Below are positions 1,069 through 64,000 of a stretch of DNA of 64,000 bases, one piece after another. The stretch spans positions 336 through 64,335 of the forward strand of contig CAYSJW010000031.1 in the NCBI GenBank assembly GCA_964431555.1, given 5' to 3'. The stretch comes from an uncultured Gammaproteobacteria bacterium. Lineage in GTDB: Bacteria > Patescibacteriota > Microgenomatia > UBA8517. Position 1 is the first letter of the stretch. Each line of letters starts with the position of its first letter. The position numbers and the translations under genes are program-made. Under the pieces are notes generated by a model. That model did not search any database and was not told where the DNA came from. It worked only from the letters and a program-made list of their open reading frames with translations.

Positions 1069-1070
1069 TA

Positions 1071-1202: not shown

Positions 1203-1232
1203 TGTGAAGCCATTTCACCTCTAAGGTGTGAT
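1203..1232 (+). repeat. 30-bp direct repeat, copy 1: tgtgaagccatttcacctctaaggtgtgat.
   Basis: An identical 30-mer recurs at 6165-6194 in the same orientation. It contains the internal hairpin gtgaa-gccat-ttcac. Confidence 0.8.
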
Positions 1233-1316: not shown

Positions 1317-1436
1317 AGTATCACCTCCTTTTTAGTCTATTTTACAAGCTGAAGTGATACTATTGTCTCATCTTAAATGAGAAATATCGTCTCAGCTAAT
1401 TTTCAGCTTAGCTTTGTAGAATTCACCCGTATAAAT

Positions 1437-2675: not shown

Positions 2676-2677
2676 AG

Positions 2678-3385
2678 ATGAGTCTAATTTCTCTATCCCA
2701 CATTTCCAAAATTTACCAAAGCGGTGAAGTGAAAGTTAAGGCCTTAGATGACATTTCTTTTGAAATTGAAAAAGGCGAATTCGTGGCGATTATGGGGCCA
2801 TCTGGATCAGGTAAGTCAACATTAATGCATATTTTAGGTCTTCTGGACAAGCCTACTAGTGGTAAATATCTCTTGGAAGGTATAGATATCTCGAAATTCT
2901 CAGAAGAAGATTTAGCAAAAACCAGAAATAAAAAAATAGGTTTTGTCTTTCAGTTTTTCAATCTCCTGCCAAGAACTTCGGCTTTAAGAAATGTGATGGT
3001 GCCTATGATTTATGGTGGAGTTAAACAAGAGGAAAGAGAAAAAAGGGCAAGAAAGCTTTTAGAAACAGTCGGTTTAAAAGAACGAATTTATCACACATCA
3101 TCTCAATTATCTGGAGGAGAACAGCAGCGTGTAGCAATTGCTCGAGCTTTAACCATGAACCCGGAAATTATTCTGGCTGATGAACCAACAGGAAATGTTG
3201 CCACCAATCAGGCTGAAGAAATAATGAAGATTCTTCAAAGTCTAAACCGGGAGGGTCATACTGTAGTTCTTATTACCCACGAACAAGACATAGCTAGGTA
3301 CGCCAAGAGAATCATCCTTCTTCGCGATGGAAAAATTGTAAAAGACGAGCTAAACGGCAAGCAAAAAATTTTGATAAAAAGATGA
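2678..3385 (+). CDS. ABC transporter ATP-binding protein, MacB/LolD-like.
   Basis: Walker [13 protein letters not shown] signature LSGGEQQR and Walker B ILADEPT. Its TGA stop overlaps the next start as ATGA. Confidence 0.85.
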
Positions 3386-47933: not shown

Positions 47934-49910
47934 GTGAAAAGATTTCCCTTTTTCAATACAGTTACTGTGCTTTTTCCTCTCTTAATCTTTTTATCAATTT
48001 TCTCAATAACCCTAAGCCAGATTTTTCTTTTAGAACCAAAAATGGTCAAGAAAACTACTTTACCTAATCAACTAGCAGGTCGGGTAATTTCTTCAACTTG
48101 CCATGAACCAATGAGTGGGTGTGGCAGTAATTACTATTGGGATTCACAGACCTGCTCTTGTAAATGTGTTACGAGTAATACCTGTCCAACTAATTATTAT
48201 TGGAATACAACCTCATGTTCGTGTGTTCCTCAAACAACCACCAATAAAACAACTTGTGACCCGCAATACTGCGGGATCAATCGTTACTGGGATGAATCTT
48301 CATGCTCGTGTAAATGCGCATCCTTCACTGCCTGCCCGACGGATCAGTACTGGGATGTTGCATCCTGCAGTTGCTTGCCTTCTACATCAGCAAACTTTAC
48401 CCCCACTCCTACAACCAAAACTTCCCCAACTACCACAAGCAGTATCACTGATTGTACCCAGCAATATTGTGGTTTAAACCGCTACTGGGATCACGCATCT
48501 TGTTCATGCAAATGTGCATCATATACTGCCTGTCTAACAAATTACTTCTGGGATACCTCATCCTGTAGTTGTCTTCCTTTAACCGAAACGAATACCAAAA
48601 CTACTTCAGAACCATCAAGTTGCACAACACCAACTTCGGATTGTCCTGCAAATTATTATTGGGACAGCAAAACTTGCTCCTGCAAATATTTGATAACAAA
48701 TCTTGACAGACTTGCCCATGAAACTCCCGAAGTAACCACATGTGTCAAATCAAAGTTGGCAGATTACGAGTATCAAAGATTTAGATATTTTATACCCACC
48801 ACCCAGCAAGATTTTGATGAAATAGAAAATCTCCACGATAGAGTTTTAGATTGTTGGAGATTAGAAATATCAGCTTCTGAAACAGCTCAAATTAAAACTA
48901 CATTAATTGAAAAAGAAAAATGTCTCATCAATTCCATCGGAGAAAATGCATACCGTCAAATTTATGAAGGAAAAAGGTCCCCCACCCAAAATGAGCATTT
49001 GTGGTTTGAAAAATGCTTCGGAAATATTCCAGCAAGTACGGTTGTTTTCCTTGATAAGGATGAGAATCTCTCAAAGGAAACTATTTCCTGCCTCAAAAAA
49101 ACACTTGGGCCAGATTTATATCAAAAGGTGTATTCTCAAAAGGCTCAAGTACCAGCCAACCTACAAAAGGGGGTTGAAATTTGTTTCGGGGCAAAATCAC
49201 AACCGTTTGAAATTGGTTCCGTATACAAAATTCCTGAATCCGTAAGAAACTGCTTAACACAAAACTTAGGGGAAGTAAAAATTGACATGTTAATTGAGGG
49301 TGTAGCCCAGTTAACTGAAGACAAAAAGGAAAAAGCCGTATCATGTTTTGAAATGATTAACCAATCCCAGAAAAAATTTCTTCCGCCCCCACCCGAACAA
49401 ATTCCCTTTATCAAAGAAAGTGATTCTATAAAAGTTACAAACGTAAAACAGGAGAAAAAAACCATAAAGAAAAAGACCTATGGAGGCAAAATAACGCTGG
49501 AGGGCAGAGCTACACCAAATAGCATCGTCAATCTCTATTTCTTTTCAGAGCCAATCGTCGTCACCACAAAAACCGATGAAAACGGCGACTGGATTTTTGA
49601 AATGCAAAAGCCGATGGATGAGGGAAAACATATTGTTTATGCTATGACAAAAACCGAAGAGGGTAATTTGATTAGATCATCAATTTTAAGTTTTGAAGTC
49701 ATCGCGGCAGAAAAGGTATCAACTCCCCAAATTTTTCTTGAAGAAGACAAAGTTACAAGTGTAACAAAAGATTTCATATACTATTCTTTAGCCGCAATAC
49801 TGATAATATCTTTAATTATTTCTGGAAGTATTTTTTACATTCAAACAAGCAAAAAAATAAATAAAATGGGAGAAAATGAATTAAACAGGAATAGTAAAAC
49901 TAAACCTTGA
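47934..49910 (+). CDS. Secreted, C-terminally membrane-anchored protein. It has about seven tandem Cys-rich repeats (C...YYWD...CSC), a C-terminal Ig-like domain and a GTG start.
   Basis: A signal peptide is present. The repeats alternate CxxQYCGxNRYWDxxSCSCKCASxTA with CxTNYYWxTxSCSC[LV]P between aa 60 and 265. A Big-like domain follows (GRATPNSIVNLYFFSEPIVVTTKTDENGDW) and then a C-terminal TM helix. Confidence 0.6.
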   Translation: MKRFPFFNTVTVLFPLLIFLSIFSITLSQIFLLEPKMVKKTTLPNQLAGRVISSTCHEPMSGCGSNYYWDSQTCSCKCVTSNTCPTNYYWNTTSCSCVPQTTTNKTTCDPQYCGINRYWDESSCSCKCASFTACPTDQYWDVASCSCLPSTSANFTPTPTTKTSPTTTSSITDCTQQYCGLNRYWDHASCSCKCASYTACLTNYFWDTSSCSCLPLTETNTKTTSEPSSCTTPTSDCPANYYWDSKTCSCKYLITNLDRLAHETPEVTTCVKSKLADYEYQRFRYFIPTTQQDFDEIENLHDRVLDCWRLEISASETAQIKTTLIEKEKCLINSIGENAYRQIYEGKRSPTQNEHLWFEKCFGNIPASTVVFLDKDENLSKETISCLKKTLGPDLYQKVYSQKAQVPANLQKGVEICFGAKSQPFEIGSVYKIPESVRNCLTQNLGEVKIDMLIEGVAQLTEDKKEKAVSCFEMINQSQKKFLPPPPEQIPFIKESDSIKVTNVKQEKKTIKKKTYGGKITLEGRATPNSIVNLYFFSEPIVVTTKTDENGDWIFEMQKPMDEGKHIVYAMTKTEEGNLIRSSILSFEVIAAEKVSTPQIFLEEDKVTSVTKDFIYYSLAAILIISLIISGSIFYIQTSKKINKMGENELNRNSKTKP

Positions 49911-51218
49911 CCCGGATCCATAAATCGACTCAACAGATATTCTTCCTCCCAAAGCTTCAACTATTTTTTTGGTAATCCATAAACCCAAACCAGTTCCTCT
50001 TACATTTTCGGTTTTCTTATCCTGAACCCGGTGGAATTTCGAAAAGAGTTTTACTATCTCATCTGGGGGTATTCCAATACCTGTATCCTTAACAGCTATT
50101 TCAATAAACTTATCCCTTTTTCTTGCACTAATTTCTATATTTCCCTCAAGAGTATATTTTATCGAATTACCTAAAAGATTAGTTATAATTTGACGCAATC
50201 TATTTCTATCAGTTTTTACAACAGGAAGATTTTCTTCTTGATAATTAATAATCAAACCTTTTGCATCAGCTGATGATTTCATGGTAGCAATAACATCCTG
50301 AATAACTTTATTAACATCAACTTCGGTTAGTTCATAGGTTAACCTACCCTGTTCAATTCTTGAAACATCCAAAAGATCTTCTATTAAATTTCTTAAATCA
50401 TCGGTTAAACTTTGCAAAAGAGAAATATCAGAAACAATTTTTTGAGCCTCTTGGGGAGAAATTTTTTTCTGCAAAAGATCTAAGTACCCTACCAATGCTG
50501 TAATTGGAGTTCTTAATTCATGGGCTGCCATTGACAAAAATTCATCCTTAAGCTTATCCACTTCTTCAAGTTGTCTTACTTTCTGAGCCTTTTGGTAAAA
50601 AATAAAGTGATTTATCAATAATGCCAAGGCAAATAAAATTAACAAAAAAAGTACAAGATAGGAATCTTTTGATGTTCTTTGTAGTATTTGATCTACCTTA
50701 TCAACCTTTAATTTTAAAAACATTATATAGTTTTTGCCGCTAACTTCACCTAAAGGAACTGAAACATTCCACAAATTCATACCAGCTTTGGGATCATAGC
50801 TTAAACCAGCAAAGGGCTCATTAAAACTCAAGGAGAGCTGGTTTAAACCTAAGTTACTAAAATCTTCAGTTTCATAATTTAAAGACGATGAAATAACAAG
50901 ATTAATTTTTTTGTTTTCCTGATAAAGTATGGAAATATCAAAAATATCACTATTCGAATTTACCGTTTTTTCAAGAGTATTTCTTAAAACATCCAAATTA
51001 CCGATGTTATCCAATACGTTAGGTTTTAATGTTTCAGCAATGCCCAAGGCATGATGGCGAATTAAAAAATTTATATCTCTACCAAATGAGCGCAAATTCC
51101 AGACTGTATTAAAAACCAAAAGAGAAGGTATAAAAAAAATTATGACAATTGGGTAAAAAACAAAAGAAAACTTCTTATAAGATTTCAACTTTTCAGAAAA
51201 ATTTGAAAAGATAAGCAT
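49881..51218 (-). CDS. Sensor histidine kinase.
   Basis: Two TM helices with a periplasmic sensor domain. H-box HELRTPITAL and HATPase GTGLGLWITKKIV. Confidence 0.85.
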   Translation of the reverse strand: MLIFSNFSEKLKSYKKFSFVFYPIVIIFFIPSLLVFNTVWNLRSFGRDINFLIRHHALGIAETLKPNVLDNIGNLDVLRNTLEKTVNSNSDIFDISILYQENKKINLVISSSLNYETEDFSNLGLNQLSLSFNEPFAGLSYDPKAGMNLWNVSVPLGEVSGKNYIMFLKLKVDKVDQILQRTSKDSYLVLFLLILFALALLINHFIFYQKAQKVRQLEEVDKLKDEFLSMAAHELRTPITALVGYLDLLQKKISPQEAQKIVSDISLLQSLTDDLRNLIEDLLDVSRIEQGRLTYELTEVDVNKVIQDVIATMKSSADAKGLIINYQEENLPVVKTDRNRLRQIITNLLGNSIKYTLEGNIEISARKRDKFIEIAVKDTGIGIPPDEIVKLFSKFHRVQDKKTENVRGTGLGLWITKKIVEALGGRISVESIYGSGSRFSFTIPV

Positions 51219-51264
51219 TTTCTATCAACGCTTTAGATAAACCCAAAATATTAATAAAACTAAT

Positions 51265-51684
51265 TTAAGAAATATATTTTTTTACAGTCTCGCTTAATTT
51301 ATCTAAAGAAATCTCGTTTTTAATAAGATACTCCAACACACCTAAATTTAAAACTTTACTTTTTTCCTCATCATCAGCAAGATTGGACCAGGCTATAATC
51401 TTCAAATTTCGGCCTTTTATATTTTTTCTAATTTTTTCTATCAATTCAGTACCTGAAAGCCGGGGAAGCATAATATCGGTTATTAAAAGATCTATTTTGT
51501 TATTTTGAAAAATTTCATAACCTTCTTCTCCATTACTGGATGATAAAACATTGTATCCATCCATCCTTAATCTTTGTTCATACATATTCCTCAACACCAC
51601 ATCATCTTCAACCAACAATATATTTTTGGGAGAAACTACATTTACTTTCTTTTCTTCTTCATTACTTTTATCCATAAAATCCAA
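51265..51684 (-). CDS. Stand-alone response-regulator receiver (CheY-like).
   Basis: LLVEDDVV ... DLLITDIMLP ... KIIAWSN. There is no output domain. Confidence 0.8.
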   Translation of the reverse strand: MDFMDKSNEEEKKVNVVSPKNILLVEDDVVLRNMYEQRLRMDGYNVLSSSNGEEGYEIFQNNKIDLLITDIMLPRLSGTELIEKIRKNIKGRNLKIIAWSNLADDEEKSKVLNLGVLEYLIKNEISLDKLSETVKKYIS

Positions 51685-51801: not shown

Positions 51802-52836
51802 TTATTTGACCATTTTCCTTACATCTTCAATTCTTATCCAACCGTTAGTTTCATCATCAAGAATCACTCTATACCATCCAGATGCTTTATCTATTACCTT
51901 TAGACCAGAATTTTTCCTAATTTCCCCAATAACCTCCGCCTGATCATTCGGCTTTGAATATAAATTAAGACCTTCCCCATTGTAGATAAAAATCAAATCA
52001 TACAAATTGCTCTGACTATGAAACCTCTGAAAATCGTCATAACCTTTAAACTTCTCAATCCAATTTGAGACAGGGACTAAAGATGAATAATTTTCAAAAA
52101 ATGTATATGAAAAACAAAAACCAATTCCCCAAGCACTTATTCCAATCATTAATAAAACTAAAATTCTCATTTCAAAACCTAACTTTATTTTTAACACCAA
52201 AGGTCTTTTAACCCTAATGAAAATTGCTGTCAAGAAAACCAATAAAAACAAAACTGTAAAAGGTAAAAGTGAGAATTTGAAATTATAAGAGGAAGTCCCC
52301 AAAACCTTGGATCTGCTTGGTAAATTTTCAATCAAGGTTTTTGAAGAAGCCAAAAGTTTATCTTCAGAATATACTTCAAAAGTCCCAACATAATATCCAT
52401 TTTTCAAGATGACCGGAAACTCAAGATCAATTTTTAAAGTTTCGCCACTTTTTACTCTTTCTTTCTTTTCTTTACTTGATATAACTTTATCAGAACCATC
52501 CAACTTAGATGCTATAAGTAAAACTCTGCTAATGTCTAAATCTTCACCACTTTTATTAAATAAAGTTATTGTCGCAAAAATATTCTCGTCAGAAACCAAT
52601 TCACCTAGACTGATATTTTTTATTTCAAGATAATCGCTTTCAAAATAATTCTCTTTTTCATTACCTTCACTAACCTGAATAGTATCTATGAAAAAATTGT
52701 CTAACCTTCCTTGAGCAAAACATACAAAATTCCTCCCTTTTCTCCATATAAAAGTTATTAATAAGATCCAAAAGGAAAAAATTAAAAAACTTATAAACAA
52801 AGGTAAAAAGATCTTTAAAAAAGTATTTTTCCGCAT
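51802..52836 (-). CDS. Membrane protein with a C-terminal bacterial SH3 (SH3b) domain.
   Basis: TM helices at the N-terminus and in the middle. The C-terminus reads YSKPNDQAEVIGEIRKNSGLKVIDKASGWYRVILDDETNGWIRIEDV. Confidence 0.45.
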   Translation of the reverse strand: MRKNTFLKIFLPLFISFLIFSFWILLITFIWRKGRNFVCFAQGRLDNFFIDTIQVSEGNEKENYFESDYLEIKNISLGELVSDENIFATITLFNKSGEDLDISRVLLIASKLDGSDKVISSKEKKERVKSGETLKIDLEFPVILKNGYYVGTFEVYSEDKLLASSKTLIENLPSRSKVLGTSSYNFKFSLLPFTVLFLLVFLTAIFIRVKRPLVLKIKLGFEMRILVLLMIGISAWGIGFCFSYTFFENYSSLVPVSNWIEKFKGYDDFQRFHSQSNLYDLIFIYNGEGLNLYSKPNDQAEVIGEIRKNSGLKVIDKASGWYRVILDDETNGWIRIEDVRKMVK

Positions 52837-52870
52837 AATCTTAATTTAATTAGATAAAAAAATACCCTAA

Positions 52871-54499
52871 TTACCACCCTGAAACATCACCTTTTACAGC
52901 TATCAAATAATTCGACCCAGAATAAATCCCAGCTACTGTATTTTCCGGAACTTTAATTCCCCAGTAAATGCTTTTTTCCCGAAACGTTTTAGTAGGTTTT
53001 TTCAAGTCAAGATCAAAATACTTCATCCCCTTCCCCAAAGGGAAGGCATCCCAGAAACAAATTTTAGATAGCGCATAACGTTGATTTTCCACTGATATTT
53101 TATATTCACCGGCATTAACAAGGTCAGTCCCATATAAAATTGCATCCAAACCAACATTGCTAAAAGATCTAATCTTAGTTTCTTTTGATAAGGGGTCTAT
53201 AACCTGGCCTATATTCAATTCCCCATATTCTATTCCAGAATCCAAATCAAAAGAAATAAGACTATTCATCTCAACTCCGATTGACACCTCCCTTTCCGAA
53301 ACAAAACCATTATCATCCTCAACTCGCAATGTTGCTTTCCAATCATCGGTAGAAAAAAAGGTTCCTTTATCAGTTGGGTCGGCATAATACCAGACCTCAA
53401 TATCACACTGGTAATTTAAAGTGGCATCCTTAGGATGTTCACAAAGCTCACCCTCAACTAAACTACAAGAAATACTAGGATAACAATAATTATTGTTAGC
53501 TTGGTAAATTGATTTGCAGCCCTGATAACCGACAGATGATCGATAAAGACTGGCTGTAACTGACTTTATTTCATCTTGACTACAGGAGTTTCTATCGCTG
53601 ACAGTTGCAGTAACTTTCACCAAAGTTTTTGTATTTGGAAAAAGATTGATATCCCTCCCCTGATTTAAAACCAAACTCATAGTTTCCGGATAGATATTAT
53701 TCACCCCGAAAGAACTCTCAACCCCCTGCAAACTAGATTGAGATTCCATACCATGTTCATCCACCAAAAAAACGTAAGCTTTATGGAGATTATCTTTCTC
53801 AATATCAGGAATCCTGTAACTGCAAGTCGGATTATTTGAAGACAATTCACTTTCGCAATATACTCCATCACTACATCTACCATTAGAAAAAGAAGGAGAA
53901 CTACAAACAAAAATTTTTGTCCTGTCTCTTCCCCCTATCACATCGGGGTCAAATGACTTAACACTCCAAACAATTAAACCACTAGGATAATCACTACCAT
54001 TATTGGTCACCGAAATAAATTCGGGAGGGTGATTTACATAAAACGGAGATCCTTGAGATCCTGAGCCTTGATAGGAATCTGAACAATAACCTGTTCCAAA
54101 ACTACAAAGAAAAGCAAACCAATCGTTCTCTTCAGAATCATCAATCCTTGCCATATACTCACATTTGGCATTATTTCCATTTTCCGTTAATTCGCTCATA
54201 CACCACATACCTTGAGGGCACGAAGGTGGATGTCCAGCATTTGAAATAATCTCGTCGGTTTTACATACAATAAAATAGTAACTGGGCGACTCCGGATCGT
54301 AAGCCTGGGCGTTAAAAATTATCTTTTCACCCGCATTTGTGGGCAGACCAACAGAGCTTTCAGGATCCTCCAGCGGACCATAAGTAAAGTGCGGAATATC
54401 CGCAACATAAACAACAACATTTACAGTTTGGGCATTAACCCTTGCAATAACAAAAGAAAAAAGAAAAAAGCCAAAAAAAATAGGCAGGGTTTTAAACAT
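52871..54499 (-). CDS. Secreted Cys-containing protein, paralog A1 of 56878-58590.
   Basis: A signal peptide. It shares two repeated Cys domains with the paralog (YYFIVCKT... and IFVCSSPSFSNGRCSD...CSYRIPD...YVFLVDEHG). The shared C-terminal motif is IYWGIKVPENTVAGIYSGSNYLIAV. Confidence 0.5.
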   Translation of the reverse strand: MFKTLPIFFGFFLFSFVIARVNAQTVNVVVYVADIPHFTYGPLEDPESSVGLPTNAGEKIIFNAQAYDPESPSYYFIVCKTDEIISNAGHPPSCPQGMWCMSELTENGNNAKCEYMARIDDSEENDWFAFLCSFGTGYCSDSYQGSGSQGSPFYVNHPPEFISVTNNGSDYPSGLIVWSVKSFDPDVIGGRDRTKIFVCSSPSFSNGRCSDGVYCESELSSNNPTCSYRIPDIEKDNLHKAYVFLVDEHGMESQSSLQGVESSFGVNNIYPETMSLVLNQGRDINLFPNTKTLVKVTATVSDRNSCSQDEIKSVTASLYRSSVGYQGCKSIYQANNNYCYPSISCSLVEGELCEHPKDATLNYQCDIEVWYYADPTDKGTFFSTDDWKATLRVEDDNGFVSEREVSIGVEMNSLISFDLDSGIEYGELNIGQVIDPLSKETKIRSFSNVGLDAILYGTDLVNAGEYKISVENQRYALSKICFWDAFPLGKGMKYFDLDLKKPTKTFREKSIYWGIKVPENTVAGIYSGSNYLIAVKGDVSGW

Positions 54500-55391
54500 T
54501 ATTCATCTTTTTCTTTTTTAAGCTAATAAAAAATGCTTTCAAAACTAAAAGGCTAATAATAAGCACTAAAAAAGACAATCCATAAAGTATTATTAAGTAG
54601 TTTTTGCCTCCAGTATCATACGTCTTTTCTGAAATACTCTCTTCCTTTTCTTTAACATTAAAAACCAATTTTTCTTCCCTCAAGGGTTTATCCTGAAATA
54701 CTACCGTAACAAAAGCGTAATATTCTCCCTCAATCAAATTATTCTTAAATTCGGCAGTTATATCCTTGGTCAAAGAAGGCTCAATACTTTCAAAATCCAA
54801 ATCCTCACCTTCAAAAAGCAAATTATTTGCAATGTCATAAACTTTAATTTCAATCTTTTGAGGTTTAGACTTCTTATTCCCTTGGTTCTCTATTGTGAGA
54901 ATCAAACGTATCGGATCCCCCTTCATTACGTTTGGCATTTCCATTTTTCTTACCAAAAGCCTATTTACTTCAATTTTCGTTGTTATAAGATTAACGGCAA
55001 TCCCAACTCCCTTAACCAGGGATACACCTGGTGTACCTTCACCTTCCAATATCTTTACAACAATAAATCCTTCATAGTTTCTTAAGGGAGCATCTTCCGG
55101 TATTGACACTTTTACCTTCATCTTCTTAGTTTTTTCTCCCCGCAAAATTGGAAAAGAAACACCCGGTTCAACCTTTATCCATTGATTTGCACCCTCAACA
55201 TCCGCCTCAATAACTATCCTTGCCTCTTTTTCACTTTCCGTTCTTGAAATAAGAAATTCTTTTTCTACTGTCTCACCGGGAATGATGTTTTCAAAAGTAA
55301 AATCAGACGGTGAAATTCCAAAAGAAGCATAAACGCAAGGCGGAAACAAGATAAAAAAGAAAAGACACAAAATTAGAGCATTTTTTTTCAT
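54492..55391 (-). CDS. Surface protein B1: signal peptide, two beta-rich domains (the second CARDB-like) and a C-terminal TM anchor.
   Basis: FGISPSDFTFENIIPGE... then KGDPIRLILTIENQGNKKSKPQKIEIKVYD (CARDB-like), then TM LIILYGLSFLVLIISLLVL. Confidence 0.5.
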   Translation of the reverse strand: MKKNALILCLFFFILFPPCVYASFGISPSDFTFENIIPGETVEKEFLISRTESEKEARIVIEADVEGANQWIKVEPGVSFPILRGEKTKKMKVKVSIPEDAPLRNYEGFIVVKILEGEGTPGVSLVKGVGIAVNLITTKIEVNRLLVRKMEMPNVMKGDPIRLILTIENQGNKKSKPQKIEIKVYDIANNLLFEGEDLDFESIEPSLTKDITAEFKNNLIEGEYYAFVTVVFQDKPLREEKLVFNVKEKEESISEKTYDTGGKNYLIILYGLSFLVLIISLLVLKAFFISLKKKKMNNV

Positions 55392-55439
55392 AACTTCACT
55401 ATTATAGTACTGGAAACTTCAACTTAACCAGAAGAGATA

Positions 55440-56825
55440 TCACTTTCTACTCTTAACACTTGTCTTATGAAGCCAACCAAAACTTCCATCATAAAGCATG
55501 ATATTATACCAATCTCCCTCTTTTTTAATCACCTCAAAAGTCTCTCCATCCTCTGCCTCATAAATAATTTTTGAAGTGAAAGTTGGTTTTTCATAAACTG
55601 GATATAGACCAGGCGTTCCAGGCTTACTCACCAAAAAGGGAGCATTTTTCTCCTCTAATTGAACTGAAACTCCTTTAACTTCCTTTTGGGGAGTGGGAGT
55701 AATTTGGACTTGAGTAGTAGGTGAGGGTGACAAAGTTGGACTAAGAATCTTTTCTTTCTCTACTACCTCACTTTCTACCACCTTATTTTGTCTAATCAGC
55801 TTCGGTGAAAAACCCAAAACCAAACCTACAAAAGTTATCAAAAAACTAGCCACCAGCAACAAAAGGGTTAACAACTTATTTTTATGAACCAAATCCGATA
55901 TCTTTTTTTCAAAATCAGATTCTCCTTTCTCCTTCCTTCGAAAATAGACAAAAAGCAAAATAGTCAAAATCAATAAACCAACGAAAGCCAGTATCAACCC
56001 TATCCAATTCATCAAACCAAAAGAGACAGGCTGAACCTGAAATATCTCTTCCTTTACCTTAGCTGGTTTTGCATTTACAGTCAAAACCATTTTCTGTCTA
56101 GCAATCTCTTCACCTTTAAAAACAACTGATGCGTCTATTCTATATTGACCTACATCCAAATTTGAATTAAATTCTGCCTTAATTTCCTTTGTTGTAAAAG
56201 GCTCAACTACCTCAAAAGATGAGTCCGATAAACTCTCCAAAGGTTTTTCAAAAAGATCCATAATTTCCAAATCAACTCTATCAGGCTTTGCCGGGGTATT
56301 ACCCAAATTCTCTATTTTTATAAAAAGACTGACAGGATCACCACTTTCTATACTGGGGGCATTTATTGAAAGAACTTTAAGAGAAGACAAGTCCTTATTT
56401 GTCGTTGTCAATTCCACCTGAAGAACTGCACCTTTAATCATCGTTACACCTTCGCTTGCTTTTTTATCAGACAAACCCTTAGCTACTATACTTCCCTTGT
56501 AAGTTTTAAGATCAATGTCTTTAGGAACATCAATTATTACCTTAAACTTAGTGGTATTCTCTCCCTTGGGAAAGGGAAATTCCATTCCAGGTTCAAACTT
56601 AAACCAACTTCCCATTTCACCCAAATCCGGCTCAAGCACAACATTCAGATTCTCGCTAACTTCCTTAGCCGGTCTGGTAACAAAAATTTCAGTTTCATAA
56701 TGACTTCCCGCTTTTAAATTTTTAACATTAATTTCAGCGGGTGTTACCCCAAAACCCGAAGCAATCCTTGGAGAAAAGAAAAAAACCAAAAGCAAAATAA
56801 AAAATAAAGTTAATTTCCTAAACAT
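55440..56825 (-). CDS. Surface protein B2, paralog of B1, with a C-terminal TM helix and an intracellular/extracellular SH3b-like tail.
   Basis: FGVTPAEINVKNLKAGS..., SGDPVSLFIKIENLGNTPAKPDRVDLEIMD, a TM helix, then GETFEVIKKEGDWYNIMLYDGSFGWLHKTSV. Confidence 0.5.
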   Translation of the reverse strand: MFRKLTLFFILLLVFFFSPRIASGFGVTPAEINVKNLKAGSHYETEIFVTRPAKEVSENLNVVLEPDLGEMGSWFKFEPGMEFPFPKGENTTKFKVIIDVPKDIDLKTYKGSIVAKGLSDKKASEGVTMIKGAVLQVELTTTNKDLSSLKVLSINAPSIESGDPVSLFIKIENLGNTPAKPDRVDLEIMDLFEKPLESLSDSSFEVVEPFTTKEIKAEFNSNLDVGQYRIDASVVFKGEEIARQKMVLTVNAKPAKVKEEIFQVQPVSFGLMNWIGLILAFVGLLILTILLFVYFRRKEKGESDFEKKISDLVHKNKLLTLLLLVASFLITFVGLVLGFSPKLIRQNKVVESEVVEKEKILSPTLSPSPTTQVQITPTPQKEVKGVSVQLEEKNAPFLVSKPGTPGLYPVYEKPTFTSKIIYEAEDGETFEVIKKEGDWYNIMLYDGSFGWLHKTSVKSRK

Positions 56826-56877
56826 TTTTAAATAATACTAAAATAATAAACTACAAAACCAGCAACTTTTATTATAT

Positions 56878-58590
56878 TTACCAATAACTTGGCCCACTAT
56901 AAATAGCCGCTAGAGTAGTTGTTCCTGTATAAGTTGCTGGGAACTGATCGTCCGGAATATTGATACCCCAATAAACATAATCCACTTCAGGAGAACTTGA
57001 TATGGTTGTTTTTGGTGTTCTAATCTCTACAGTCTGACCCGTCCCACTAAGAACAATTGAAGCTGAATCCCATTCAGTATTGTAAGTTTCATCGGCTCTC
57101 TGGTTATTGACAGCAATTGTGTGACCTTGACCATCGCTCATTGGAGCAGAACTTGAAACTTGCGTATTCAAGCCGGTATTTCCCGTATTGGTAACCTCGT
57201 TGGAATCTACCAAATAATCATCGTGCATTCCCGCTGACATACTTCCATAAGAAAGATTACCTGAATCCAGAGCCTGAAGCATGTTTAATTCCACCCCTGT
57301 TGCCGTATCATCCACCTCTTCCAAATCATCATCGGCAATTTCAAAATAAGAAAGCCAAGTATCATCGGACCAAGGAGTATTTTCAACTGTCGGATCTGTA
57401 TGATACTGCATAGCTGCAGTACAAGTATAGGTTACATCAACATCCGATCCCCCAGTGCAAGTGGAATTGGAATTACAGACAACTTTATAATCGCCGGAAT
57501 CACCAGTATAACAGTTATTAACATTTCCGCTACAAGATGATCCTCCAGAAACCGATGACCTATACATCACATAACTTGAAGGGTCATCCAAATCATTACA
57601 CCCATTATTGTCTTGAATTGAAACCACGAAACTTATATTTGTCGTTGAAGGATACTCTCCCCCTGTTAAAACAATCGCACTTCCCCCGTTTGTACTTATA
57701 CTTAATATAGTCGGTGCGACATTAGCTACATAATAACCCGATGAAGTGCTAACCGAAGGATCAAAACCGTGCTCATCGACAATGAAAGCATACGCACTAT
57801 AAGGGGATGAGTCATCATCGGTTCCTGCCGGAATTTGATAAGAACAGGTAGGGTTGGATGACTTTCCAATATCGTAACACAATGTTGTCGCCGCACACGA
57901 TCCATTAAATGAGTTTGTCGAACAAACATAAAGGCTTATCGTATCACCTGAATCGGTATCTGGATCACTTGCAACAGTAGTCCAGGTAACGTAATCTCCC
58001 GGATCATTTGGAGAACTTTCTCCTGCGTCATTTTGCACACTTGTTACATTTGGAGCATGATTAACCACTAAAGGTGACGCCTCATTTTGGCCAGTATTCC
58101 CCTGCGAAGTCGCCGAGCAAGTCTGATCTGTTGTATTTGCGTCACAAACTTTGGCATACCAAACCTGATTCTCATTATCTCCCTGCTGGGCTTGATAATT
58201 ACAACTTGCAACCTCACCATCATTTGTGGCTGATGAAACACAAATGGTTTGGCCTGTATCACAAGTTGGAGCACCAGAATTATTCTCATTAAAAACATTG
58301 GTTTTACAAACTATTAAATAGTATTGCTCTCCGTTTGGTTCATCAGCTGTTGCCCTGAAGGTAGTTGAAGAACCAACATTAACAGGGCTGGCAGTATATC
58401 TAGCAGGACTCTCACAAGGATAATTACCACAAACTGCATCAGTATCAAAATCCGGAGGATCGTTACCCACAGTAACGGAAGTCTCAATATTATCTGCTTT
58501 TGTTTGTTTAGAAAAACCCGGGATAAAACCAACTACTAATAAAACTGCCAAAATAAAAATTAAATAAATCCTTATTTTTTTAAATTTCAT
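56878..58590 (-). CDS. Secreted Cys-containing protein, paralog A2, rich in Ser/Thr/Asp.
   Basis: YYLIVCKTN...CNYQAQQGD...WYAKVCD...SPLVVNHAPNV and ISLYVCSTNSFNGSC...CSYQIPAG...YAFIVDEHG. The C-terminus reads VDYVYWGINIPDDQFPATYTGTTTLAAIYSGPSYW. Confidence 0.5.
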   Translation of the reverse strand: MKFKKIRIYLIFILAVLLVVGFIPGFSKQTKADNIETSVTVGNDPPDFDTDAVCGNYPCESPARYTASPVNVGSSTTFRATADEPNGEQYYLIVCKTNVFNENNSGAPTCDTGQTICVSSATNDGEVASCNYQAQQGDNENQVWYAKVCDANTTDQTCSATSQGNTGQNEASPLVVNHAPNVTSVQNDAGESSPNDPGDYVTWTTVASDPDTDSGDTISLYVCSTNSFNGSCAATTLCYDIGKSSNPTCSYQIPAGTDDDSSPYSAYAFIVDEHGFDPSVSTSSGYYVANVAPTILSISTNGGSAIVLTGGEYPSTTNISFVVSIQDNNGCNDLDDPSSYVMYRSSVSGGSSCSGNVNNCYTGDSGDYKVVCNSNSTCTGGSDVDVTYTCTAAMQYHTDPTVENTPWSDDTWLSYFEIADDDLEEVDDTATGVELNMLQALDSGNLSYGSMSAGMHDDYLVDSNEVTNTGNTGLNTQVSSSAPMSDGQGHTIAVNNQRADETYNTEWDSASIVLSGTGQTVEIRTPKTTISSSPEVDYVYWGINIPDDQFPATYTGTTTLAAIYSGPSYW

Positions 58591-58778
58591 AAATCTTCGT
58601 ATAAAAGTATTAAATAATTATTAAATAGTTCATAACCAAATTTCAATAGCAAATTAACCAACATCGTTTCTACTAGATTTTAGAATTTTTAAATACTATA
58701 AATATACTGGTATATTCGGTAAATATTAAGCTAATAGAATAAATTTATTGCACCTATAAAAATTAACCCCAAAGTTTG

Positions 58779-61700
58779 CTAAGGAGAAACTATACTGACA
58801 ATGGTATTACTTCCATAATAATTTCCCCAGGGAGTAGTTTGAGGAATACCTAAAATCCAATAAACATTCTTCGAGGAATTTGAAGGTATAACTTGCGATT
58901 TGGGAATATCTATATCCAAGGGTACAAGATCTTTTGAAAGCAAATTACCCTCACCATAAATAAAACTCGAAGAATCATATTCCTGGTTATCAACATTTAT
59001 CTTATCCCCAAGACAATCCGGATAATCTGTACACATATCATCCCCTGAAATACGCAAATCCAAAGTTCTATTTCCATGATTTTCAACCGGAGTTTGTTTT
59101 AGACCTGACGTCTTAGTGGGAAGAATTTTACCATAAGCAATAGATGATGAAGTACTTATTGTAAGAAGACTATTTACATCAACTACATCGGAAGGGCTGA
59201 TATTTTCCCCTGATTCGCTTTTAACATCTGTTGCCTTAATCCAAGCCAACCAATATTCAGATGAGTAATTCCCCGAATCTGTTGCATCAGAAAAAAAAGC
59301 TAAAGATACCTCACAGGTTGCCGTACAGGAATTTCCCGAACAACCTGAAAGAGTACAAGATGAATCATAATAACAGTTATTTAAATCCTCAACACACTCT
59401 TTCCCAACTCCCGACCTATATACCTTGCCTTCAACAACATCTATATCCGAAAATCCATTCTCGTCAGAAACAGTTGCTGTAAAATTCACTGCTTTGCTAC
59501 TATTTGGTGTCAAATCAATATCTAAACCTGAATTCAAAACTACATTTACCACTTCTGGTGCCGCATTAATGGTCACAACTCCTTCTGAATAATCACTTAC
59601 CTGGGGATTAATACCGTCACTGGTTATACCATATATATAATAAGTTCCAGGGGAAACTCCTGTTGTATCCCAATCACAAGTTTGATTTGAACCTTCAGGC
59701 TGGTCCTGGCAGCTTGAAATCGCAGTTCCGTCAAGACCGCTACCATCTGTGTCATAATAAAAATCGGCATAAACAGTATTATCACCATCACTAAGGTCAT
59801 ACTGGATTGTAAAAACAGATCCTTCAGAAATTACATCGTTAACTCCATCTGGTTCATCAATATTAAGAGAAGGCGGCTGATTTACCAAAGGAGTATATTG
59901 GATAACAATAATTCCCTGTTTCCCTGAAGAACCGGAACCTGCAGAATAACCCTTTCCCGAACCTCCCCCTCCTGCGCCGCCCGCACCATATTGACCAGAT
60001 GTGCCACCCCCGCCTCCGTTGTTATTTCGGCTTCCCCCGCCTCCTCCACCGCCACCACCTCCAGAACCGTGAGTAGAATCCCACTCGCTCCCATTACCTC
60101 CCGCCCCACCCGAAGAACTTGCCGGACCACCGCTTCCTCCGATTCCACCATAAGAACCGTCTCCTCTTCCTCCACTCCCTCCAGCACCTCCCGTATTTCC
60201 TGAAGCGGCAGAACCATTATTACCCGCATTTCCAGATGCATAAAGTCCACCAGCTCCACCGCCACCGCCACCCCCTCCACCGGCATTTGTAGAAGCCGCA
60301 CCTCCACTACCACCATTACCTCCTGAATAACCTGAACCAACCGAAGCTACACCCCCGGACCCCCCATTTGTTCCTGAACCTCCACCACCCCCTGTGGCAC
60401 AAACAGACGAGCTAGCACAACTTGAACCGTTGAAGTAAGTTGACCCCCCTGCGCTTCCTACCGAACCACCACTTCCTACTGCCAACGAAACGGAACTATT
60501 GGGAGTTAAATCCAAATTGGTAATTTTTGAATAGCCTCCACCACCCCCTCCTCCTCCGCCAAGACCTCCTGATGTTGATGAAGCTGTTCCATTTGCTCCT
60601 CCACCACCCCCGCCAACTACTTCAATAGAATTGTCATTATCATTCCAATCATTGGGTACTGTCCAACTCGTTCCCGAAGTTATATAAACAGTCGCATCCG
60701 AAGCTAATTGCCACTGACGAGTATCCCTGAAGGTCTGTTGAGCATCCATCGAAATCATCTCTAAAGGTCCAAGCAAAAAAACAAAGGGGGATAGTTTTGG
60801 AGCCTGATATTCATAAGCAAGTACTTTTTTCTCTTTTGCAGTAACATCCAAAATCCAAGAAATAAACTTTTCATTTTTTTCTTCAGTAATTGTGTAGTTA
60901 CCTTCTTTTATTTGAAAATCTTGCGGAACTTTTTCAATGAGGGTTCCTGAAAAACCAGACTTAGATTCCACTACAATCTTCATCGTATAAGAAGATTTAT
61001 AAGGATTTATACGCGTTGCTCCCACTCTTTCCAGCGAAAAAACAGGATCTTCCTCTACAGTAAACGCACCATTTATCGAAAAACCATTGGCAAGGTTGGT
61101 TAGAAAAAAATGATAGTTGCCAATCTCCTTCAGTTCATAATAAACAAAATAATCAGGTTTATCGGTGACATTATTATTTAGACAATAATCACTTATGGAG
61201 ATAGACCCATCCTCAACATAAAAACTTTTTACCTCCCCATTTGGCTTAACAATCAAAAGTTCCAAGTTGCTATCACAAACCGTGTGTCCATCATCCCCTA
61301 AAGAAGCCATCTGAATATAGGCGGTTTCACCTTTTGCAAAAACTGTTTTATTCAAATTAAGAGCCAGCACTCCATACAAAAAAGTCTGCTCAACAAAATT
61401 ACCCGTTTCATTATCTCTGACAGTAACAACATGTTTACCTGGTTTTATATTGCTAATCGGCACCTGCAATGTCAGATTTTTTAACTCAATATCCTTCTCA
61501 AGTTCCACATTCTTGTCAATGTCTTCAACAATCAGTTTTAAATTCGAGTCTTTTTGTGGTTTGTCAATTTTTTCATTCGACAATCCTAGTATTTTTTGCA
61601 ATACCCCCGATTGAGTTGAACCAACTGTCTCCTCAAAAACAACTTCCTCAATCTTGACTTCAGGCACTTCATCTGCTCTAAAATGAACTTTCGGCATTGA

Positions 61701-63935
61701 AACTTTAATTGTTTTATCTTTGGTATTTAAAATTCTTTCCTCCAACTTAAGATTTCCATAGCGCTCACTAGCCAAAAATTTACCCTTGGGCATCACCAAA
61801 TCTGGTCTAATTTCCCAAACCCTATCAACACCTTTTCCATCAATTACAACCGGGCCCAGATAATAGTTAGTCCAATCGCTTCCCAAATCACTAAATGTGT
61901 ATCTTAGGGTATAAGTTTTGCCTTTTATAAAATCTACATCCCAAATAATCTCTTGAATGCTTTCATTTTCCTTAACCACAAAGTCCTCTTTTAGAGAAAT
62001 TAAATCTTGGTTTTCTGACGACGTAACAAAATTACTATAGGGTTTAATGTAAAAGTTCTTTGGCAAGATATCTTTAACCTTTCCTTTATAATTACGGTTT
62101 GCTTTTATTTTTATCACAACAGGATAATCCTCACCTGGTCCCACCCTAATTGGAGCTCCTCTTGAAACTTCAAAATCTTCATCTACTCCTAAATCGTTAA
62201 CTACAAAGTCAGAAGATAACTCAAACATTTCATCAGCTTTTTCAAAAATAAGACTAACTTTATAATCACCTTTTTCAGTTACAATATACTTTGCTTCATA
62301 GTCTGCCTTGTTTGTTTTTTCTGATCTCTTACATTCATCATTTACTTTAATAGAACCATCAAATGTCGCTAAAATTGTCTTTTTGACCAAGTCCTTATTC
62401 TCTACAATCAAAAGTAAATTTGCGTCACAATATGGCTTACCTTGACTATCCATAACACTCATCGCAAATAATACCTCTTCACCAACTTTATAAGACGATT
62501 TATTGACATTCAAAGCGGCAATCCCCCAGCTAAATTTCTTAGTTACTAATCCTTCATTCTTTGATTCAAAATTCAGAGTGTATTCACCAGGTCTTAAACC
62601 ACTCGAGTCATCTACCCTTATTTCATATTCCCCTATGTCATTTTTTATGACTTTAAAACCGCTTACCTTTGTACCGCTAGAATCAAAAATATTCACTTTG
62701 GGTTCTTCTGGCTCAATCTCATAACTCACCCCCAAGACCTTTGACAGGCTACTTTGTGTTTTCTGAACCAATCCTATTTTCTTTTGAACAGTAAAAAGGG
62801 GCTTTTCTGTAACCAAATAATTCGTTTTACCCCTCACAATTAAATCTTTACTTTCTGATTTATAAACCACTTCTGAAAATTGCTCTTTCCCCTTTTTTAC
62901 ACTTTCTTCAGAAAAGGTAAAACTCTGTTTTAAAAAATAACCCTCCTCTTCTCTAATAAAAGATGGGGCAAAAATTAAAAATAAAATAAGTAAAGAATAA
63001 TAAAATAAGTAACTTGGACTATCTCTGAAGTAACCAATAAGTCTTAACGAAAAATTTTCCAATTCTGTTTTTACAAAAAGTGCTTTTGCAAAATCAACAA
63101 AAAAGTCAATGTTTTGAAGGATTGAAAACTTTAATGATATCAGGCGTTTTTTGAAAGAAGCTATAAAAGCAAAATAGTAATCAAGAATAAGTAAAGATAT
63201 CTTCTTTGAAGAAAATATAAAACTCGCTTTCAAAGCTTTTGGAATTTTACGAGTGAGTGCATAAAGAAGTTTAAGTCTATGCTCAATAAAGGAAAACGAA
63301 AGTGAAACTGTAATAACCGGTACTTTTTCTTGTCTTCTCCTCAAAAGCTTTTTAGCAAACAATATCCTTTTTTCTCTATTACTTAACTGGTACCGATTTA
63401 AAATGTTCCAGATAGTCCAAACGGAAACATTTAAACTTTCTGAAAGTTGACTGATTGAAAAGAAAGGATTATTTGCAACAAGCAATAAGAGTTTTTCTTC
63501 GATCCTCGGGTAGACAGCCAACGGATGGTCTTTACCTCTGACATATTCTTTCTTAAAAATTTCTACTTTGTCACTCTGTTTATTCCTGTACCGTTGGATC
63601 CAAGTATAAAGTGTTTTTCTGGCAATTCCATATCTTTTAGCCACATCTGTAATCCTTTCCCCGTTATTTACTACATGGAGTACCGCTTCTTTTCTCTTAT
63701 AAGCATATAAATTTTTACGCTTGTAGTTGTAAGAATACAAAATACGTTTTTCTTGAGTATTTAAATTATGTTTTTCAAGAATTTTCCAAGTAGTCCAAAC
63801 CGACAAAGGTACATATCTAGTTAATGAATTTATAGATAATTTTGGATGTTTAACAACTATTCTAAGAAGTTTTTCTTCTAATAAAGGATATTTAGCTCTC
63901 GGGTGTTTGTATCCTCTAACATACCTAGGAGTCAA
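58779..63935 (-). CDS. Giant 1718-aa protein. It has three transposase-like HTH domains at the N-terminus, two hydrophobic TM segments, a long extracellular region with a 250-aa poly-Gly/Ser tract, and a C-terminal paralog-A domain.
   Basis: aa 1-200 contain duplicated HPRAKYPLLEEKLLRIV...SVWTTWKILEKH and HPLAVYPRIEEKLLLLV...SVWTIWNILNRY (winged HTH) flanking RITDVAKRYGIARKTLYTWIQRYRN (IS3-OrfA-like HTH). TM helices lie at about 235-330. The Gly tract (...VVGGGGGGANGT...GGGGGGGGGGSRNNNGGGGG...) spans about aa 1090-1345. The C-terminal domain reads CQDQPEGSNQTCDWD...YYIYGITSDGINPQVSDYSEGVVTINAAPEVVNVV and YWILGIPQTTPWGNYYGSNTIV, shared with 52871 and 56878. Confidence 0.55.
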   Translation of the reverse strand: MTPRYVRGYKHPRAKYPLLEEKLLRIVVKHPKLSINSLTRYVPLSVWTTWKILEKHNLNTQEKRILYSYNYKRKNLYAYKRKEAVLHVVNNGERITDVAKRYGIARKTLYTWIQRYRNKQSDKVEIFKKEYVRGKDHPLAVYPRIEEKLLLLVANNPFFSISQLSESLNVSVWTIWNILNRYQLSNREKRILFAKKLLRRRQEKVPVITVSLSFSFIEHRLKLLYALTRKIPKALKASFIFSSKKISLLILDYYFAFIASFKKRLISLKFSILQNIDFFVDFAKALFVKTELENFSLRLIGYFRDSPSYLFYYSLLILFLIFAPSFIREEEGYFLKQSFTFSEESVKKGKEQFSEVVYKSESKDLIVRGKTNYLVTEKPLFTVQKKIGLVQKTQSSLSKVLGVSYEIEPEEPKVNIFDSSGTKVSGFKVIKNDIGEYEIRVDDSSGLRPGEYTLNFESKNEGLVTKKFSWGIAALNVNKSSYKVGEEVLFAMSVMDSQGKPYCDANLLLIVENKDLVKKTILATFDGSIKVNDECKRSEKTNKADYEAKYIVTEKGDYKVSLIFEKADEMFELSSDFVVNDLGVDEDFEVSRGAPIRVGPGEDYPVVIKIKANRNYKGKVKDILPKNFYIKPYSNFVTSSENQDLISLKEDFVVKENESIQEIIWDVDFIKGKTYTLRYTFSDLGSDWTNYYLGPVVIDGKGVDRVWEIRPDLVMPKGKFLASERYGNLKLEERILNTKDKTIKVSMPKVHFRADEVPEVKIEEVVFEETVGSTQSGVLQKILGLSNEKIDKPQKDSNLKLIVEDIDKNVELEKDIELKNLTLQVPISNIKPGKHVVTVRDNETGNFVEQTFLYGVLALNLNKTVFAKGETAYIQMASLGDDGHTVCDSNLELLIVKPNGEVKSFYVEDGSISISDYCLNNNVTDKPDYFVYYELKEIGNYHFFLTNLANGFSINGAFTVEEDPVFSLERVGATRINPYKSSYTMKIVVESKSGFSGTLIEKVPQDFQIKEGNYTITEEKNEKFISWILDVTAKEKKVLAYEYQAPKLSPFVFLLGPLEMISMDAQQTFRDTRQWQLASDATVYITSGTSWTVPNDWNDNDNSIEVVGGGGGGANGTASSTSGGLGGGGGGGGGYSKITNLDLTPNSSVSLAVGSGGSVGSAGGSTYFNGSSCASSSVCATGGGGGSGTNGGSGGVASVGSGYSGGNGGSGGAASTNAGGGGGGGGGAGGLYASGNAGNNGSAASGNTGGAGGSGGRGDGSYGGIGGSGGPASSSGGAGGNGSEWDSTHGSGGGGGGGGGGSRNNNGGGGGTSGQYGAGGAGGGGSGKGYSAGSGSSGKQGIIVIQYTPLVNQPPSLNIDEPDGVNDVISEGSVFTIQYDLSDGDNTVYADFYYDTDGSGLDGTAISSCQDQPEGSNQTCDWDTTGVSPGTYYIYGITSDGINPQVSDYSEGVVTINAAPEVVNVVLNSGLDIDLTPNSSKAVNFTATVSDENGFSDIDVVEGKVYRSGVGKECVEDLNNCYYDSSCTLSGCSGNSCTATCEVSLAFFSDATDSGNYSSEYWLAWIKATDVKSESGENISPSDVVDVNSLLTISTSSSIAYGKILPTKTSGLKQTPVENHGNRTLDLRISGDDMCTDYPDCLGDKINVDNQEYDSSSFIYGEGNLLSKDLVPLDIDIPKSQVIPSNSSKNVYWILGIPQTTPWGNYYGSNTIVSIVSP

Positions 63936-64000
63936 TAACTTTAAACTTTTATCTGAAGATTTCTGAACTATTTTAATTAAGCTGTATAAGGTTTTTCTGG

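Follow-up and report, generated by a model that had tools for sequence, protein, structure and literature searches.

Background

Little is known about the envelope and the host attachment of CPR/Patescibacteria beyond type IV pili and a few Saccharibacteria adhesins. A stretch of 64,000 nucleotides from this phylum, hereafter called the window, carries between positions 51802 and 63935 a group of minus-strand genes that a preliminary description had presented as a candidate novel surface or attachment apparatus. In this work we asked what the products of these genes are, whether the cluster recurs in other genomes, and which known surface system it resembles.

Gene content of the cluster

The cluster comprises six co-oriented open reading frames, at the coordinates first reported and with intergenic gaps of -8 to 188 nt, and the overlap already noted between 52871-54499 (g2) and 54492-55391 (g3) measures 8 nt. 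The six genes fall into two families only, three of them bearing a module named MOD (g2, g5 and the giant g6) and three being of a type named ANC (g3, g4 and g1). The features are the following, with the basis of each assignment in brackets.

49881..51684, minus strand: histidine kinase (49881-51218) and receiver-only response regulator (51265-51684), neighbours and not core
51802..52836, minus strand: g1, 344 aa, truncated ANC paralogue (hhalign against ANC alignment A5; Pfam; transmembrane (TM) segments)
52871..54499, minus strand: g2, 542 aa, MOD paralogue (BLASTP against g5)
54492..55391, minus strand: g3, 299 aa, short ANC (BLASTP against g4; TM segment)
55440..56825, minus strand: g4, 461 aa, long ANC (BLASTP against g3; AF2; Pfam SH3b)
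56878..58590, minus strand: g5, 570 aa, MOD prototype (AF2 model; homologue search)
58779..59558, minus strand: giant g6, C-terminal D3-D4 module, aa ~1460-1718 (BLASTP against g2 and g5)
59559..64000, minus strand: giant g6, remainder, with the 5' end beyond the window (Pfam HTH; TM; repeats; no upstream stop)
59568..59885, minus strand: giant g6, one 105-aa Ig unit
~59886..60638, minus strand: giant g6, Gly-rich low-complexity stretch
60591..62624, minus strand: giant g6, two copies of a ~275-aa beta-rich unit (internal and cross-locus repeats)
62955..63011, minus strand: giant g6, TM segment, aa 309-327 (TM prediction)
63336..64000, minus strand: giant g6, N-terminal, cytoplasmic HTH repeats of transposase type (Pfam HTH_23, HTH_28, HTH_Tnp_ISL3)

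The giant had been described as a protein of 1718 aa starting at 63935. Its reading frame is in fact open up to the edge of the window: no stop codon precedes the TTG at 63935, and the HTH repeat continues to the edge. The gene therefore extends beyond the window, and its start does not lie at 63935.

When the six proteins, 51 MOD members and 24 plus 76 ANC relatives were searched against Pfam and NCBIfam, SH3b and HTH were the only families found above threshold. Rfam gave no match in the window, and a promoter and terminator scan, in which the number of sites did not exceed chance, was uninformative on operon structure.

A histidine kinase, a receiver and a Cys-repeat protein do adjoin the cluster, as first observed, the Cys-repeat gene being convergent. 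The kinase and receiver genes are kept, at 63-71% identity, beside the cluster of L007 only, which is the closest relative with enough downstream sequence for this comparison, and they are absent beside the more distant clusters checked (L001, L004 and L005). They are not core parts of the cassette.

The MOD family and its C-terminal tail

The g2 and g5 proteins are similar across their full length (BLASTP 2e-65), and the C-terminus of the giant matches both g5 (1e-16) and g2 (3e-22). In g5 a signal peptide is followed by four tandem Ig-like domains, D1 (aa 45-178), D2 (179-292), D3 (293-432) and D4 (433-570), which contain 8, 4, 6 and 0 Cys residues, respectively, and the C-terminal residue is Trp; the AF2 model (pLDDT 88.3) arranges the four domains as a rod. 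The g2 protein likewise has a cleavable signal peptide and four Ig-like domains, with 17 Cys residues and a C-terminus reading ...GDVSGW. MOD proteins are Sec-exported rods of four Ig-like domains, in which Cys residues are limited to D1-D3.

None of the 159 g5 homologues found contains a Pfam domain. Neither g2 nor the MOD family matched Pfam or NCBIfam, and the family had no specific match in the PDB, where structure searches with MOD returned generic Ig-array matches only and sequence searches with MOD and ANC profiles returned matches at chance level or to SH3b. Conservation along the MOD domains is flat and highest in D1 (0.50, as against 0.40-0.42), so that D1-D2 are unlike a variable displayed passenger.

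A duplicated Cys domain with the signature YxIVCKT had been attributed to 52871, 56878 and the giant. The giant does not share this domain with the two smaller proteins: what it has in common with them is its last ~310 aa, starting from aa 234 of g5 or aa 215 of g2 and comprising the end of D2 together with D3-D4, so that it carries at its C-terminus only the D3-D4 half of MOD.

The existence of a common C-terminal tail was borne out, since the motif [YWF]W..[IV]P...G.Y.G is found in 48/51 family members; a terminal Trp is present in 38/51, and is kept in 44 of the 50 small MOD proteins. Its reading as a sorting signal did not hold. In the AF2 model the tail of g5 forms the last two strands of D4 (E535-544 and E558-564, block pLDDT 88-93), and the shared motif is accordingly modelled as the F-G hairpin of a CARDB-like beta-sandwich, the last hairpin of D4. 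A similar motif of the WGIxIP type gave weak matches to the N-terminal beta-sandwich domain of GH123. Searches of Pfam and NCBIfam with the C-termini of g2, g5 and g6 found no LPXTG/sortase, T9SS CTD or PEP-CTERM match, and no TM segment follows the tail. A detachable C-terminal sorting signal was ruled out on the folding of the tail and the lack of a sorting-signal profile match.

The ANC family and its relation to WxLIP

The paralogy proposed for g3 and g4 is confirmed (BLASTP 1e-48). In g3 two beta-sandwich domains follow the signal peptide, and the protein ends with one C-terminal TM helix (aa 266-284) and a basic tail. In g4, which also has a signal peptide, the two beta-sandwich domains span aa 30-142 and 149-251; after them come a TM hairpin, a linker that is disordered and rich in Pro and Thr, and the SH3b domain (nt 55455-55604). 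In g1 an N-terminal TM segment is followed by one CARDB-like beta-sandwich and a TM hairpin, after which comes the SH3b domain (nt 51817-51972), which is extracellular. Both SH3b domains, which had been noticed before, score above the Pfam gathering score, the test being made with PF08239 and PF06347: g1 matches SH3_3 at 6e-11 (42.7 bits), and g4 matches SH3_3 at 33.8 and SH3_4 at 32.4 bits, with aa 408-453 adopting an SH3-like beta fold in the AF2 model. In addition to being an SH3b protein, g1 is a truncated paralogue of g3 and g4, as hhalign aligned it with the ANC alignment A5 across D2, the TM hairpin and SH3b with a probability of 98.8%. The hairpin puts SH3b outside the cell in g4 and g1, and hairpin and SH3b are present together in 32/76 ANC relatives.

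The CARDB-like domain seen earlier in g3 and g4, the second domain of ANC, holds at the level of the fold; its Pfam match stays below threshold in the proteins of the window (g3 against PF07705, 14.5 bits with a cut-off of 22.7, besides a weak DUF7490 match). CARDB matches at E<=1 occur in 25 of the 76 relatives (best 7.3e-7), a likeness at fold level only. The family is large, with 1847 representatives at E<=1e-3 of clusters drawn at 50% identity; the mature N-terminus is a conserved FG[IV][ST]P, and the N-terminal domain D1 is better conserved than the second.

Profile-profile and fold comparisons indicate that ANC is a remote relative of WxLIP (DUF916-DUF3324), the membrane anchor of the WxL surface clusters of Firmicutes. 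The hhalign alignment is collinear and includes the signal peptide and the TM helix, both of which add to the full-length score. Both g3 and g4 have the WxLIP architecture of a signal peptide, two Ig-like beta-sandwiches, a C-terminal TM helix and a basic tail (AF2 for g4; hydropathy for g3 and g4). Matches to WxLIP_HBD (PF11797) were below threshold in 9/76 ANC relatives (best E 1.2e-5; P0248, 17.3 bits with a cut-off of 28.9) and absent at E<=1 from the proteins of the window. PF06030 (DUF916/PGBD) does not occur among the 25 families listed for the 76 ANC members, and full scans of 10 members did not find it either. The NQIDKxxxYFDLK motif of PGBD is absent from ANC; in the hhalign alignment its NQID..YFDL segment faces a gap.

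The MOD partner shows no such relation to the WxL domain, whose marks are two W-x-L motifs, D.R...GW.L and a C-terminal W.L..P. PF13731 matched none of the 51 MOD members at E<=1, hhalign of MOD domains against 14 WxL sequences remained below 1%, and two WxL motifs, or the terminal motif, were present in 0/51 members, as compared with 13/14 genuine WxL proteins.

Conservation in other genomes

GTDB genomes were scanned with an alignment of 9 sequences, and the 36 loci with enough sequence downstream of the MOD gene were counted. In 35 of these an ANC gene starts within ~110 nt after the MOD gene, making this a nearly invariant pair across the group; the loci are labelled mostly Dojkabacteria/WS6, together with other Patescibacteria. 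The triad of a large protein, a small four-Ig protein and a membrane anchor is found in six independent metagenomic loci (L001, L002, L004, L005, L006 and L007). Most clusters contain at least two MOD-bearing genes, the second protein being usually large and ending in the D3-D4 half of MOD, as in L001, L005, L006, L009, L017, L018 and others; in L048 and L049 the small protein consists of D3-D4 only, and the highest count is five MOD-bearing genes in L004.

Homologues scattered without synteny had been named beforehand as an argument against a dedicated apparatus; the gene order is instead conserved, and the triad and the pair agree with the original view of a dedicated, non-housekeeping envelope gene set. 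The apparatus is a surface gene set as proposed, but not a wholly novel one: since its CARDB-TM proteins, the ANC family, are remote relatives of WxLIP, it belongs as a variant to a type of system already known. We found no paper on this cassette, nor any tying WxL to CPR.

Proposed function and alternative readings

With slightly better than an even chance, in our estimation, the locus is a CPR/Patescibacteria cassette for cell-surface display and assembly, organised like the WxL (Csc) clusters of Firmicutes around a different displayed module, and the MOD-ANC pair probably holds the giant surface proteins of CPR on the cell. The ANC ectodomain would bind MOD and hold it at the membrane or cell-wall surface, as proposed for WxLIP with WxL, and SH3b could add a grip on peptidoglycan. 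Through the D3-D4 module, large proteins that vary between lineages and contain LamG, Fn3, DUF2341 or Gly-rich regions may be recruited to this platform, with either ANC as the docking site or the small MOD protein as the partner. The likely output would be a surface layer that lets an ultrasmall episymbiotic cell adhere or that protects it. In favour of this reading are the paralogy, export and topology of the proteins, the synteny, the organisation in common with WxL clusters and the size of the ANC family. Against it count that ANC stays below the Pfam thresholds for WxLIP_HBD and lacks the PGBD motif, that part of its full-length hhalign score is owed to the signal peptide and the TM helix, that MOD has no similarity to WxL, and that conservation in MOD is flat and highest in D1; moreover, the giant of the window has an N-terminal TM segment of its own as a further anchor, which counts against a need for docking.

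That the genes are a loose island of unrelated secreted Ig-domain proteins without joint function is hardly credible. Folds of the Ig-like and CARDB-like kind occur widely, and MOD found only generic matches in structure searches, but the order is kept in 35 of 36 loci at ~30-40% protein identity and paralogous families are shared within the cluster, so that synteny strongly disfavours this reading. A fibre or pilus built by strand exchange, with ANC as a membrane-tethered, PapD-like chaperone or platform polymerising MOD and the giant as tip or base, seems quite improbable. It could draw on the retention of the terminal Trp in the small MOD proteins and on the WxLIP strand predicted to insert into WxL (PMC10599100); however, the AF2 model gives each of the four MOD domains a complete sandwich with high confidence, Pfam and NCBIfam searches found no usher, sortase or LPXTG motif, and chaperone matches score below WxLIP. 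The combination that defines chaperone-usher pili, an usher gene with subunits lacking their last strand, was not found.

An S-layer, in which the small four-Ig MOD protein would form the lattice, ANC would be its stalk or anchor in the membrane, like SlaB for SlaA of Sulfolobales, and the giants would be S-layer-associated proteins that share the lattice-insertion module, appears rather unlikely, and overlaps with the display cassette without excluding it. The conserved and evenly constrained MOD, with its maximum in D1, is more like a structural subunit than like the tip of an adhesin, and the MOD-ANC pair is obligatory. SLH and CWB2 systems offer a precedent for an anchoring module that an S-layer protein shares with many paralogues. 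A survey reports S-layer proteins in Patescibacteria (10.1101/2024.05.28.596244). Against this stand the up to five MOD-bearing genes in one locus (L004) and the lack of any match to SLH or other S-layer models in Pfam and NCBIfam.

Returning to the display cassette, we would put forward tentatively, and with clearly less than even probability, that it is a phylum-wide, undescribed CPR platform, in which an ancient dock of WxLIP type has acquired a new partner, a four-Ig module specific to CPR, and mounts giant, lineage-variable host-attachment proteins or an S-layer. If so, the anchoring principle of WxLIP would have existed before Firmicutes and CPR diverged and would not depend on the WxL domain. 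The relation of ANC to WxLIP extends the WxLIP superfamily beyond Firmicutes, and a WxLIP-like anchor coupled to a non-WxL partner bears on how WxLIP itself works; a WxLIP structure now in the PDB, EfmWxLIP1 as chain C of entry 9i25, offers a structural precedent. The cassette is a testable candidate for the CPR envelope and host attachment, with the D3-D4 module marking giant proteins that are likely surface-mounted.

Comparison with known systems

The SLH (Bacillus) and CWB2 (Clostridioides) systems resemble the cassette in that one module occurs in a major structural protein and in many accessory surface proteins, and SlaA/SlaB of Sulfolobales in that a secreted multi-Ig protein goes together with a beta-sandwich stalk protein anchored in the membrane. 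The proteins of the cassette have no sequence or profile match to SLH, CWB2 or Sla proteins. In the VARTIG modules of Thermococcales (PMC8416519) a gene for a large multi-Ig protein is likewise followed by genes for smaller Ig- or CARDB-domain membrane proteins; identity with VARTIG was ruled out, however, as its C-terminal Ig domain is hypervariable, whereas the C-terminal module here is conserved and shared.

The WxL (Csc) clusters known from Lactobacillales, Listeria and Bacillus are defined by at least one WxLIP and at least two WxL proteins within four genes; in them a small and a large protein have the same domain at the C-terminus and are accompanied by a TM protein with two Ig domains (PMC10599100). 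Unlike in these, the common module here is a two- or four-Ig-domain unit without WxL motifs, the small LPXTG protein, the sortase and the Mga-type regulator are missing, many ANC proteins add the TM hairpin and SH3b, ANC lacks the NQIDK motif and stays below Pfam thresholds, and the host phylum is Patescibacteria. The HTH of the giant was discarded as a parallel to the HTH regulators of WxL clusters, those being of Mga type and the giant's of transposase type. The likeness lies in the organisation: two or more secreted proteins, of which one is small and another is large and variable in its N-terminal domains, share a C-terminal module and stand beside a WxLIP-type anchor, and in plasmid WxL clusters, as here, the module gene is followed by the anchor gene.

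Gene content of the cluster

The six co-oriented ORFs of the preliminary description are present, with spacings of -8 to 188 nt, and on sequence comparison they are assigned to just two families: MOD, a secreted rod of four Ig-like domains (D1 to D4), and ANC, made of a signal peptide, two beta-sandwich domains and a membrane anchor.

51802-52836, minus strand: g1, ANC
52871-54499, minus strand: g2, MOD
54492-55391, minus strand: g3, ANC
55440-56825, minus strand: g4, ANC
56878-58590, minus strand: g5, MOD
58779 onward, minus strand: g6, giant protein with a MOD C-terminus

g2 and g5 are similar over their full length (2e-65), and the C-terminus of g6 matches both g5 (1e-16) and g2 (3e-22). 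In the other family g4 is similar to g3 (1e-48), and g1 aligned with a profile of 76 ANC sequences with an hhalign probability of 98.8%, the alignment running from the second beta-sandwich through the TM hairpin into SH3b. The only Pfam and NCBIfam matches among the six were SH3b (g1 and g4) and a transposase-type HTH at the N-terminus of g6. No match was found for g2 or g5 in either database and, as judged from these searches, MOD has no curated family.

Another large envelope protein of the window, unrelated to the cluster, is a 1747-aa bacterial alpha-2-macroglobulin-like protein (14400-19643, plus strand; A2M_BRD, A2M, MG2, MG4, Big_5).

Structure of the two families

Export signals and membrane topology are evident in the cluster. 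In the AF2 model of g4 (pLDDT 75 overall, >85 in folded parts) a signal peptide is followed by two beta-sandwiches, at aa 30-142 and aa 149-251. Next come a TM hairpin whose loop is basic and a disordered linker rich in Pro and Thr, and the chain closes with an SH3b domain, which the modelled topology would place outside the cell. g3 ends after one TM helix and a Lys-rich tail.

The C-terminal tail common to the MOD proteins had been proposed as a possible sorting or assembly signal. In the high-confidence model it is instead the last hairpin of D4 (strands E535-544 and E558-564), the predicted final hairpin of a CARDB-like sandwich; the tail-type motif gave weak matches to the GH123 N-terminal beta-sandwich. 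Trp is the last residue (...KGExxxW-COOH) in 44 of 50 small MOD proteins, and this extension is kept where large proteins (loci L004 and L020) carry the full four-domain unit. Giants with D3-D4 only end about six residues sooner and lack it, a distribution which suggests that the terminal Trp is functional. Because conservation is flat across the domains and highest in D1, the small MOD protein looks structural rather than like a variable-tip adhesin, and an S-layer is therefore a possible alternative reading.

The giant protein

Position 63935 had been given as the start of the giant. There is no stop codon upstream of this TTG and the HTH repeat runs on to the window edge (region 63726-64000, minus strand), so g6 is cut by the window and the gene extends past it. 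The upstream codons (RKTLYSLIK...) continue the repeat and resemble the N-terminus of the orthologue in L006, where positions 1321-2082 match the HTH region by tblastn. Within the window g6 has its own N-terminal TM anchor, a caveat to the recruitment of giants proposed below. Three transposase-type HTH units (HTH_23, HTH_28 and ISL3-type), predicted to be cytoplasmic, are joined via one TM segment to the giant extracellular part (HTH units and TM segment together, 62955-64000, minus strand). The fusion may represent a DNA-binding protein tethered to the membrane, or else a transposase fragment that has been domesticated. The L007 orthologue (gene 1-3202, cut by the locus edge) has only faint or weak precomputed HTH matches, and in the giants of L001, L022 and L030 a simple signal or anchor sequence takes the place of HTH at the N-terminus.

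In g6 an Ig unit of 105 aa (aa 1351-1456; 59568-59885, minus strand) is single in the window and present in at least 12 tandem copies in L007 (2297-6115). The g6 orthologue there is broken up into five ORFs, the cause being either frameshifts or misassembly of the repeats. A Gly-rich low-complexity stretch (59886-60638, minus strand; GGGGG runs, aa ~1100-1350), for which no family match was found, raises local GC to 42% and produces a spurious overlapping ORF (59882-60340).

Distribution and gene order

Detectable homologues of g5 numbered 159, none with Pfam domains and one named Candidatus Dojkabacteria. On contigs around these homologues the order large protein, ~560-aa MOD, ~450-aa ANC is found in L001 and L005 to L007, with variant orders in L002, whose 5909-aa protein ends in a full MOD unit, and in L004, which has five MOD-bearing genes. 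When GTDB was scanned with each species represented by a single genome, 47 loci were recovered, most labelled Dojkabacteria/WS6 and others Shapirobacteria, WWE3, Doudnabacteria, Paceibacterota, Sungbacteria or similar. A few bin labels are implausible: L022, L033, L037 and L047 are labelled Pseudomonadales, Gammaproteobacteria or Dehalococcoidia, which probably reflects mislabelled or contaminated bins rather than true occurrence outside CPR.

The MOD and ANC genes are tightly coupled. ORFs were called in the loci and classified by BLAST. Of the 36 loci in which a complete MOD gene is followed by 1 kb or more of sequence, 35 have an ANC gene that begins, on the strand of the MOD gene, no more than ~110 nt beyond it; L022 is the exception. 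Most clusters contain a second MOD-bearing gene, usually of 600-2900 aa, whose last 260-300 aa are D3-D4; this module is thus common to small and giant proteins, and it alone forms the small protein of L048 and L049. The ANC ectodomain profile, searched against 1.84 billion cluster representatives, matched 1847 of them at E<=1e-3.

The histidine kinase, receiver and Cys-repeat protein previously described as neighbours accompany the cluster in L007 only. The convergent 658-aa Cys-repeat protein (47934-49910, plus strand) combines CxxxxYYWD-type repeats with a Big_13-like domain and is anchored by a C-terminal TM segment; its counterpart beside the kinase in L007 (15360-17423) is 47% identical. 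In the distant cluster L002 (6702-9280, 13172-17424) the MOD-ANC pair has as neighbours an ABC transporter of the MacB/FtsX type and proteins that give cohesin and faint dockerin matches.

Relation to WxL clusters

The literature search found no description of the cassette and no link between WxL and CPR. The cassette is of interest chiefly as a way into the organisation of the CPR envelope and into attachment to host cells.

The layout recalls the Firmicute WxL/Csc clusters. These encode two WxL proteins, one small and one large with its WxL domain at the C-terminus, together with the WxL-interacting protein WxLIP, in which a signal peptide precedes DUF916, DUF3324 and a TM helix (PMC10599100). 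Genuine WxL clusters were found on plasmids via peptides in the supplement of that paper, with a match of 3.5e-42 between 9i1y and one of the WxLIPs they encode. The kinship of ANC with WxLIP is seen in the hhalign comparison of the 76 ANC sequences with 8 WxLIPs (probability 97.8%, E 1e-12, 291 collinear columns). After removal of the signal peptide and TM helix the alignment still spans both domains (76.5%, P 2.2e-5, 209 columns), compared with 0.4% for the reversed control and at most 13.3% for 20 block-shuffled ones. Sub-threshold WxLIP_HBD matches in 9 of 76 ANC relatives point the same way. Against full membership, ANC scored below the thresholds of the WxLIP Pfam models, lacks the NQIDK..YFDLK motif and did not retrieve 9i1y in PDB sequence searches. 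ANC is thus a remote member of the WxLIP superfamily, outside the curated families. MOD itself is not a WxL protein, with hhalign probabilities <1% for every domain and WxL motifs absent in 51 of 51 members.

EfmWxLIP1 is also chain C of a second PDB entry, 9i25, possibly a complex, whose partner could reveal the surface through which WxLIP binds, against which ANC could then be compared. We propose that ANC would hold MOD proteins at the surface, that SH3b would tie the complex to peptidoglycan, and that the D3-D4 module would recruit giant, variable proteins to this platform, the first of these roles being analogous to that proposed for WxLIP and WxL proteins.
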